The notes: a model not told the origin generated them from the sequence alone. A DNA stretch of 64,000 bases from Escherichia coli (GCF_029227855.1 NZ_CP074356.1), one strand, 5' to 3'. Positions 37,166-39,313 are shown, counted from the stretch's first letter. Made by a program: numbers and translations.

Positions 37166-38527
37166 ATGACAAGGATAAAAATAAACGCACGCCGTATCTT
37201 CAGCTTATTGATTCCTTTTTTCTTTTTCACTTCTGTTCACGCTGAACAAACGGCAGCTCCCGCAAAACCTGTAACTGTGGAAGCGAAGAATGAAACCTTT
37301 GCCCCGCAGCATCCCGATCAATATCTCTCCTGGAAAGCCACCTCGGAACAGTCAGAGCGTGTTGACGCCCTGGCGGAAGATCCACGGCTGGTGATCCTGT
37401 GGGCGGGGTATCCCTTCTCGCGCGATTACAACAAGCCGCGTGGACATGCCTTTGCTGTGACCGATGTGCGTGAAACCCTGCGTACCGGTGCGCCGAAAAA
37501 CGCTGAAGATGGTCCGCTACCGATGGCGTGCTGGAGTTGTAAAAGCCCGGATGTGGCGCGTCTGATCCAGAAAGACGGCGAAGATGGCTACTTCCACGGT
37601 AAGTGGGCGCGCGGCGGCCCGGAAATCGTCAACAACTTAGGTTGTGCCGACTGCCATAACACCGCCTCACCAGAGTTCGCCAAAGGCAAACCGGAGTTAA
37701 CCCTTTCCCGTCCGTATGCGGCTCGCGCGATGGAAGCCATTGGTAAACCTTTTGAGAAAGCCGGACGTTTCGACCAGCAATCGATGGTTTGCGGTCAGTG
37801 CCATGTGGAGTATTACTTCGACGGCAAAAACAAAGCGGTTAAATTCCCGTGGGATGACGGCATGAAAGTCGAAAATATGGAGCAGTATTACGACAAAATT
37901 GCCTTCTCTGACTGGACTAACTCCCTGTCGAAAACGCCAATGCTGAAAGCGCAGCACCCGGAATATGAAACCTGGACAGCGGGCATTCACGGTAAAAACA
38001 ACGTGACCTGTATCGACTGCCATATGCCAAAAGTGCAGAACGCCGAAGGCAAACTCTACACCGACCATAAAATTGGTAATCCGTTTGATAACTTCGCCCA
38101 GACTTGTGCGAACTGCCATACCCAGGACAAAGCTGCCTTGCAAAAAGTGGTCGCGGAACGTAAGCAGTCGATTAACGACCTGAAAATCAAGGTTGAAGAT
38201 CAACTGGTTCACGCTCACTTCGAAGCGAAAGCAGCGCTGGATGCAGGCGCGACGGAAGCCGAAATGAAGCCAATTCAGGACGATATCCGTCATGCCCAGT
38301 GGCGCTGGGATCTGGCGATCGCTTCCCACGGCATTCATATGCACGCACCGGAAGAAGGTTTACGGATGCTCGGTACGGCGATGGATAAAGCGGCGGATGC
38401 ACGCACCAAACTGGCGCGCCTGCTGGCGACCAAAGGCATCACCCATGAAATCCAGATCCCGGATATCTCAACCAAAGAGAAAGCCCAGCAGGCTATTGGC
38501 CTGAACATGGAACAAATCAAGGCCGAG
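37166..38527 (+). pseudogene. nrfA: nrfA 5-prime fragment (codons 1-454 of cytochrome c552 nitrite reductase) ending at a junction
   Basis: [15 protein letters not shown]... with CxxCH haem motifs and the CWSCK active-site motif, matching NrfA up to ...NMEQIKAE. Downstream reading continues into antisense yhjC sequence; the last about 24 codons of nrfA and nrfBCDEFG are absent. Confidence 0.85.
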
Positions 38528-38528
38528 A

Positions 38529-38794
38529 ATGGTGGCATCCTGTTGAAACAGACCGTCCAGTTCGCTGAGATTACTCAACACATCTTTTGCTCGTTGATAA
38601 TAGGTCATGCCTTCTGGCGTGAGTTTGACCCGTCGCGTGGTGCGCTGGAGAAGCTGGGTGCCAAGTTGATGTTCCAGTGCCTGTATCTGGCGCGAAACAC
38701 TTCCTTTTGGCAAAGCAAAGAAATCCGCCGCGCGGGAAAAACTTTCCAGCTCCGCGACTTTGATGAACAACTGCATTGCGTGAATTTTATCCAT
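38529..38794 (-). pseudogene. yhjC: yhjC 5-prime fragment (first 88 codons of LysR-family regulator YhjC) ending at a junction
   Basis: [62 protein letters not shown]... is a LysR-type HTH N-terminus. The reading frame continues into antisense nrfA after ...DGLFQQDAT. Confidence 0.75.
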
Positions 38795-39313
38795 TTCTTT
38801 GACCGATTGTTGTTCACAGCGAAACAGTAACGCGCATATCGCATTGTTTATTGTTTTTTCTAACATCTAATGCCGGGTTTCACAATGTTGTCATGACGAA
38901 TGTGGCGATTTCTCAGCAGGAAAAGGGCGGAATAGCTTTCTGAGAAAGGTGAATCCCCCTAAACAGAGCGTATTTTTCAGCGATTCCCTTTAAAGTGAAT
39001 AGAGGACGTGTTGGCTATTTGTGCTTATTTTTGTCTCATTGCCGTTTGTTATTTTTGCTTGTGGTCGCGGAGTTTCATTTTTAATTGCATGCGTACTAAC
39101 CACCAATATAAGGAAATCCTCAAAATTGTTTTAAATAGTGCCCTCGACATGTAATTTCAGGCGTTTAGCTGTAACTATTTATATCGGTAACTATTTTCTA
39201 CGCGTCATCTCTGTAGAATGGCCACCGCCAAATGGCGAATTCTTATTTTTTCTCGCGGGTAATACCCTTCCACTACTTAAGTCTTTTTAACGTATTCAGG
39301 TGGAGATTCAGTT

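Follow-up and report, generated by a model that had tools for sequence, protein, structure and literature searches.

A 10.6-kb inverted ghxP-nrfA' block replacing the dctA-rcdB interval of an Escherichia coli sequence is probably a mis-joined sequence patch

The Escherichia coli window analysed here is the whole stretch of 64,000 nucleotides, and all positions are counted from its first letter. Its two flanks (1-27891 and 38530-64000) are colinear with NCTC8623, the left one carrying eptB-dpp-bcs-hmsP-dctA' and the right one rcdB'-yhjB-treF-gad-mdtEF-hde-ars. Between the flanks lies a plus-strand block of 10,638 bp (27892-38529) from the ghxP-nrfA region, which is inverted relative to the flanks and whose native locus is ~660 kb distant, on the other side of oriC. 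The block contains core housekeeping genes only, in their native order ghxP-yjcE-yjcF-actP-yjcH-acs-nrfA'. It occupies the place of an interval of 10,670 bp (2,951,808-2,962,477 in NCTC8623), which runs from dctA nt 152 through yhjJ, kdgK, pdeH, yhjG, yhjE and yhjD to rcdB nt 266. The lengths of the block (10,638 bp, or 10,647 bp when error-free) and of the replaced interval differ by only 0.2-0.3%.

Only yjcH (34303-34617, minus strand), which is free of indels, and the truncated nrfA' are unbroken in the block. On the plus strand, ghxP (27892-29239) is broken by two 1-nt deletions at 28386 and 28495, and yjcE (29390-31038) by indels at 29398, 29784 and 30380. On the minus strand, yjcF (31192-32482) is broken by indels at 31257-8, 31738, 32110 and 32149 and actP (32659-34306) by deletions at 33172 and 33542, and in acs (34817-36774) the loss of one G from GGG at 35701 leaves two ORFs of 363 aa and 288 aa.

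The left junction lies between 27891 and 27892, where dctA nt 151 abuts, in a blunt join, the ghxP start codon (ATG), the A of which is also the first base of the block. The truncated dctA' on the plus strand (27741-27891) retains the first 50 codons plus 1 nt, and its read-through ORF of 66 aa ends at 27941. The two partners show an imperfect 6-of-8 similarity at this junction (CTCCTGTC vs. CTTATGTC), in which the switch point falls between two mismatched positions and 0 nt are shared. An annotation coordinate is an unlikely site for a random DNA break.

Base-level alignment against the reference loci placed the right breakpoint, which is also the right edge of the block, between 38529 and 38530. 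The match to the nrfA locus ends ...GCCGAGAA at nrfA nt 1364 (38529), and the match to antisense rcdB (yhjC) begins TGGTGGC... at 38530 and runs downward from rcdB nt 265. The two genes are thereby joined head-on, with the breakpoints inside nrfA codon 455 and rcdB codon 89. The right junction is blunt, with 0 nt common to both partners at the switch point. An earlier note on this DNA had described a head-on joint of nrfA codon 454 to yhjC codon 88 and had proposed a pairwise alignment with reference nrfA and yhjC; the alignment bears out the joint and shows that neither gene continues intact past it.

On the plus strand, nrfA' (37166-38529) consists of 454 codons plus 2 nt (nt 1-1364) and is preceded by the native acs-nrfA intergenic region; both its native promoter region and its signal peptide are intact. 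The resulting chimeric ORF (37166-38830) encodes 554 aa, in which 454 reference-identical residues from the ATG at 37166 are followed by 100 foreign residues from antisense rcdB and its upstream region, with the stop codon at 38828-38830. The plus-strand read-through had previously been put at 111 codons, because the count began further upstream, at the TTG with which the mechanical ORF opens (37133); counted from the true NrfA ATG, the length is 100. The NrfA' chimera keeps all five haem motifs (CWSCK and four CXXCH) and lacks the C-terminal 24 residues. On the minus strand, rcdB' (38530-38794) comprises nt 1-265 (88 codons plus 1 nt) and encodes the HTH region only. Its chimeric ORF (38468-38794) starts at the ATG at 38794 and encodes 108 aa, of which 88 are identical to RcdB and 20 are foreign residues from antisense nrfA, with the stop codon at 38468-38470; the earlier count of 88 yhjC codons and 20 antisense nrfA codons was thus correct. 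The two chimeric ORFs overlap antisense across 363 nt (38468-38830). A promoter and terminator scan around the right joint revealed nothing significant, with no significant terminator-like site between the chimeric ORFs. The genes nrfBCDEFG, which had been reported as missing downstream, are indeed absent from the 64,000-nt window. If the right joint were real, transcription of nrfA' and rcdB' would collide head-on.

Alignment and a repeat search agree with the earlier observation that the right joint has no repeat or mobile-element sequence. Across 27000-39500, the repeats are short chance matches only, none of which pairs the two ends of the block. No direct or inverted terminal repeats, target-site duplication, IS or transposase were found at the joints or in the block, and no integrase, att repeats, tRNA or other specific target in or beside it. 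The breakpoints have no oppositely oriented homologous repeats, and the sequences on the lost sides are unrelated in the base-level alignment. No marker, FRT/lox scar, vector or primer-derived sequence was found, and no base of the window is left without an alignment to a native E. coli locus. The microhomology at the switch points of both joints is 0 nt. Homologous or microhomology-mediated joining was rejected, both joints being blunt.

Each 200-nt half of the right junction matches its own locus in 5,425 of the 5,426 complete E. coli genomes (99-100% identity in 4,128 records and 95-99% in the remainder), and the joint is thus not a chance resemblance. The two halves are adjacent in none of the 5,426 genomes, and the halves of the left junction are likewise never adjacent (0/5,426). 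The right junction was found in 0 of the 72,556 records of the plasmid collection, and its 28-mer was not found in GTDB representative genomes or JGI metagenome contigs. The chimeric NrfA', RcdB' and DctA' and most of the frameshift fragments are not among ~15 billion public proteins. Contigs with the 183-aa GhxP, the 288-aa C-terminal fragment of Acs or the YjcE fragment belong to other lineages and have the normal nrf context. All the contigs encoding the exact YhjB or HmsP protein of the window show the normal dctA...rcdB order.

Comparison of the flanks with NCTC8623 showed 7 substitutions and 0 gaps over 53.4 kb. Comparison of the block with its best match (GB089 and many others) showed 13 indel events, 11 deletions and 2 insertions, and 1 substitution, which changes AAAACAAA to A8. 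The chance that all 13 indels land in the block is small (p = 7e-11). The indels fall mostly in homopolymers of 3 or more (10/13 vs. 17% expected, p = 3e-6). Indel rates in natural mutation are about ten times below substitution rates (PMC6054270), and long-read assemblies keep residual homopolymer errors where polishing fails (Polypolish paper). The block, in which indels outnumber substitutions 13:1, shows the opposite of natural mutation and matches residual long-read homopolymer errors. On the strength of this ratio and of the confinement of the indels to the block, three other sources of the indels were rejected, namely natural decay of pseudogenes, mutagenesis by break-induced replication and PCR error.

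The block also differs from the flanks in ancestry. Comparison with the ghxP-nrfA locus of NCTC8623 itself showed 54 substitutions in 10.6 kb, so that the block, at 0.51%, is 34 times as divergent from NCTC8623 as the flanks, at 0.015% (p = 6e-34). GPEC1222, the second flank-nearest strain, has the NCTC8623-type allele and not that of the block, with 48 mismatches in 7 kb. To judge from these alleles, the block probably represents an E. coli lineage other than that of the flanks (GB089-like vs. NCTC8623-like). A natural recombination tract in the nrf region of the source strain could mimic such a mismatch.

Within the block, the first 5.7 kb (28386-33542 vs. 33543-38529) contain 12 of the 13 indels and 45 of the 54 substitutions relative to NCTC8623, and the final 5 kb contain one indel, at 35701. 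The block may not be uniform in its quality or its origin. The change of A5 to A4 in ghxP at 28386 results in a frameshifted GhxP of 183 aa that is identical on 28 public contigs (NCBI, Logan, ENA). At least the ten contigs examined come from divergent lineages, and some are otherwise clean. In a comparison of the block indel sites across loci, this was the sole recurring site, the loci having been selected for it. Either sequencing errors recur at this site, or the allele arises repeatedly by natural slippage.

The two loci lie on opposite replichores, with oriC of NCTC8623 (the gap between mnmG and mioC, ~3,228,600) located between rcdB (2.95 Mb) and nrfA (3.63 Mb). The distances from oriC are 266-277 kb on one side vs. 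396-406 kb on the other, which is 130 kb off equidistant. The GC skew of the block has the same sign as that of the flanks. A symmetric exchange at the replication fork is unfit to explain the breakpoints, because they lie on opposite replichores but are not equidistant from oriC. Inversions normally end in oppositely oriented repeats (PMC2483231).

The discontinuities in the sequence at both edges argue that the block is an unpolished or foreign patch, an artefact of assembly or patching, and this explanation is probable. The flanks would be high-accuracy sequence of an NCTC8623-like strain, and the patch would be an error-laden sequence with homopolymer errors of the long-read type, carrying a GB089-like ghxP-nrfA allele and placed inverted and blunt-ended in the position of the dctA-rcdB interval. 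The patch may have come from a long read or contig, chimeric or contaminant, that bridged or filled the space between two accurate contigs, from a false extra copy beyond correction by short-read or homologue-based polishing, or from a cut-and-paste guided by annotation coordinates. The chimeric read-through ORFs would be passive by-products with no function. From the anatomy, the discontinuities of error and ancestry and the absence of a recombination substrate, which are directly observed, we infer both that the block is an artefact and by which step the patch may have been produced. The ghxP-ATG start and the near-equal lengths are predicted by coordinate-based or size-guided patching and not by random DNA breakage. 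The anatomy given in the earlier note stands, but the genuine chromosomal rearrangement with functional consequences that it implied is not supported by the changes of indels, ancestry and geometry at the joints. The joint is present in the sequence text but most likely not in the cell.

Several points weigh against a patch. A genuine extra copy or a genuinely rearranged block would show the same error pattern of an unpolished island, because short reads multi-map when a segment is truly duplicated, and polishers that rely on homologues may pass over one that is rearranged. The mismatch in ancestry could stem from an ordinary recombination tract in the nrf region of the source strain. The orientation of the block is the one that an inter-replichore exchange would give, in its GC-skew sign and in the location of the two loci on opposite sides of oriC. 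Long-read assemblers seldom produce two blunt false joins in unique sequence, and a simple read chimera leaves the near-equal lengths unexplained. The near-equal lengths of the block and the replaced interval are explained by neither a random chimera nor a random rearrangement. The length match and the clustering of indels in the first 5.7 kb leave the ranking of the explanations unchanged.

A genuine chromosomal event that is independent of repeats is unlikely, although its probability is not negligible. It could have been a swap across oriC in which dctA-rcdB' and ghxP-nrfA' changed places and were each inverted, through either a double reciprocal exchange or a pair of nested non-homologous inversions. 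Alternatively, a ghxP-nrfA' fragment, the strain's own or one taken up from another E. coli and captured by end joining, could have been inserted duplicatively, replacing the dctA-rcdB' interval. In either version, the frameshifts would be sequencing errors left only in this block, where polishing failed on the duplicated or rearranged segment, and the convergently transcribed NrfA' and RcdB' would be genuine fusions of truncated genes. A genuine swap would have the reciprocal joints ...GATGTTTTCTT/CTGTCATCTTTTG... and ...ACCGCTGATAC/GCAGGACTTCATC..., or, in an alternative spelling, ...GATGTTTTCTT/CTGTCATCTTTTGTACCG... and ...TTTACCGCTGATAC/GCAGGACTTCATCAAAACGG....

The topology of the sequence is exactly that of two nested inter-replichore inversions, and the block is oriented so that its GC skew agrees in sign with that of the flanks. 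Nearly equal lengths (10,670 vs. 10,647 bp) are what an exchange between aligned duplexes would yield, polished long-read assemblies are known for unpolished islands at repeats (Polypolish paper), and the intact promoter region and signal peptide of nrfA are also in favour of a real event. However, the joints have neither the oppositely oriented repeats that inversions normally have (PMC2483231) nor microhomology, the breakpoints are not equidistant from oriC and nothing alike occurs among the 5,426 complete genomes. Short-read polishing would not fail on the block in a single-copy swap. An intragenomic duplication would be expected to carry the strain's own allele, yet a different allele is found in the strains nearest to the flanks. 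Were the native copy of the 0.5%-divergent NCTC8623 type, most of the indel sites would lie near SNPs and be polishable. As a coincidence, a block start on the ghxP ATG would have odds of ~1 in 1,000. A real swap or overwrite of unique segments of almost equal length (10.65 kb) between the replichores, through two joins that are blunt, independent of repeats and free of microhomology, with frameshifts that are unpolished noise, is given a rather low likelihood, slightly below that of a genuine event of any kind. If it were true, a length-preserving double exchange would suggest recombination between physically aligned duplexes. To our knowledge, no mechanism by which recombination of aligned duplexes gives a length-preserving exchange has been described for E. 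coli.

A deliberate laboratory construction, in which dctA-rcdB' was replaced by a ghxP-nrfA' fragment through recombineering or cloning, is improbable. The block begins exactly at a start codon, as a designed fragment end would, and the edges of the replacement are clean and blunt. However, the right end lies inside nrfA codon 455 with no design logic, and there is no selection marker, FRT/lox scar, vector, primer tail or homology arm. PCR errors would be mainly substitutions rather than 13 indels to 1 substitution, and the construct has no evident purpose. Transposition of a mobile element or site-specific integration (a composite IS transposon, an integrative island or a phage) is highly improbable, having nothing in its favour beyond the fact that a block has moved, whereas the block consists of core housekeeping genes only in native order, lacks transposase, integrase, terminal inverted repeats, att repeats and target-site duplication, and comes with the loss of 10.67 kb.

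A mis-joined patch, the preferred explanation, resembles the chimeras and unpolished islands of hybrid or long-read assemblies, in which homopolymer-type errors are confined to one segment whose edges are the joints, the flanks are of perfect quality and the junction is unique. Unlike typical misassemblies, which occur at repeats, the two joins here are both in unique sequence, and the patch has approximately the length of the replaced interval. The locus is also similar to inter-replichore inversions (Eisen 2000; Tillier and Collins 2000; Darling 2008, PMC2483231) in that opposite sides of oriC are involved, the block is inverted and the strand bias is kept. It differs from symmetric inversions of this kind in having endpoints 130 kb off equidistant and no inverted repeats at the ends, and the symmetric model leaves the discontinuities of error and ancestry unexplained. 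No reciprocal product is seen in the window, which does not extend to the nrf locus of the source genome.

Illegitimate recombination by alternative end joining in E. coli has reportedly been described by Chayot and colleagues in 2010, and gyrase-mediated exchange is said to have been described by Ikeda. Illegitimate or alternative end joining usually leaves 1-9 nt of microhomology. As in such events, unrelated sequences are joined here without long homology, and capture of a fragment with loss of resident DNA is possible. However, both joints have 0 nt in common, and a captured fragment would have to consist of 10.6 kb of core E. coli genes and match the deletion in length. The frameshifts in several genes of the block resemble the pseudogene decay of a redundant duplicate. 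Natural decay, in contrast, would give the reverse of the proportion observed (13 indels to 1 substitution), and the changes in homopolymer length are typical of sequencing error.

If the block is an artefact, neither the two fusion proteins nor the seeming absence of genes such as nrfBCDEFG, dctA, kdgK and pdeH should be given an annotation or a biological meaning. The locus would then be a lesson in quality control, with a misplaced or contaminant patch as the thing to look for in the source assembly. The indel:substitution ratio and the identity to the nearest strain, which both shift exactly at the suspicious junction, constitute a diagnostic that needs no reads. If the joints were real, they would document a rare repeat-independent and length-preserving exchange of blocks between the replichores of E. 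coli, which would bear on the mechanisms of rearrangement.

The coding differences between the flanks and NCTC8623 (6977, 12736, 17246, 26876 and 39686) are all nonsynonymous, five in total. The G-to-A change at 17246, in bcsA codon 432, results in BcsA C432Y, an allele that none of the 5,426 complete E. coli genomes carries. The change is a mutation private to this sequence or else a wrong base in a flank that is clean elsewhere. The difference at position 80 of BcsG is an oddity of NCTC8623 itself, and YhjB S125 is also found in other lineages. As a possible mark of low fidelity across the flanks, these differences point in more than one direction. The flanks also contain local repeats. Three tandem units of ~480 bp with ~95% identity (9920-11292) correspond to the ldr genes for type I toxins, which lie between bcsG and yhjV. 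Two 108-nt repeats, 168 bp apart (1743-2018), lie in the RtT sRNA/tRNA-Pro region beside eptB, and two repeats of ~117 nt, 231 bp apart (63109-63456), lie near dinQ.
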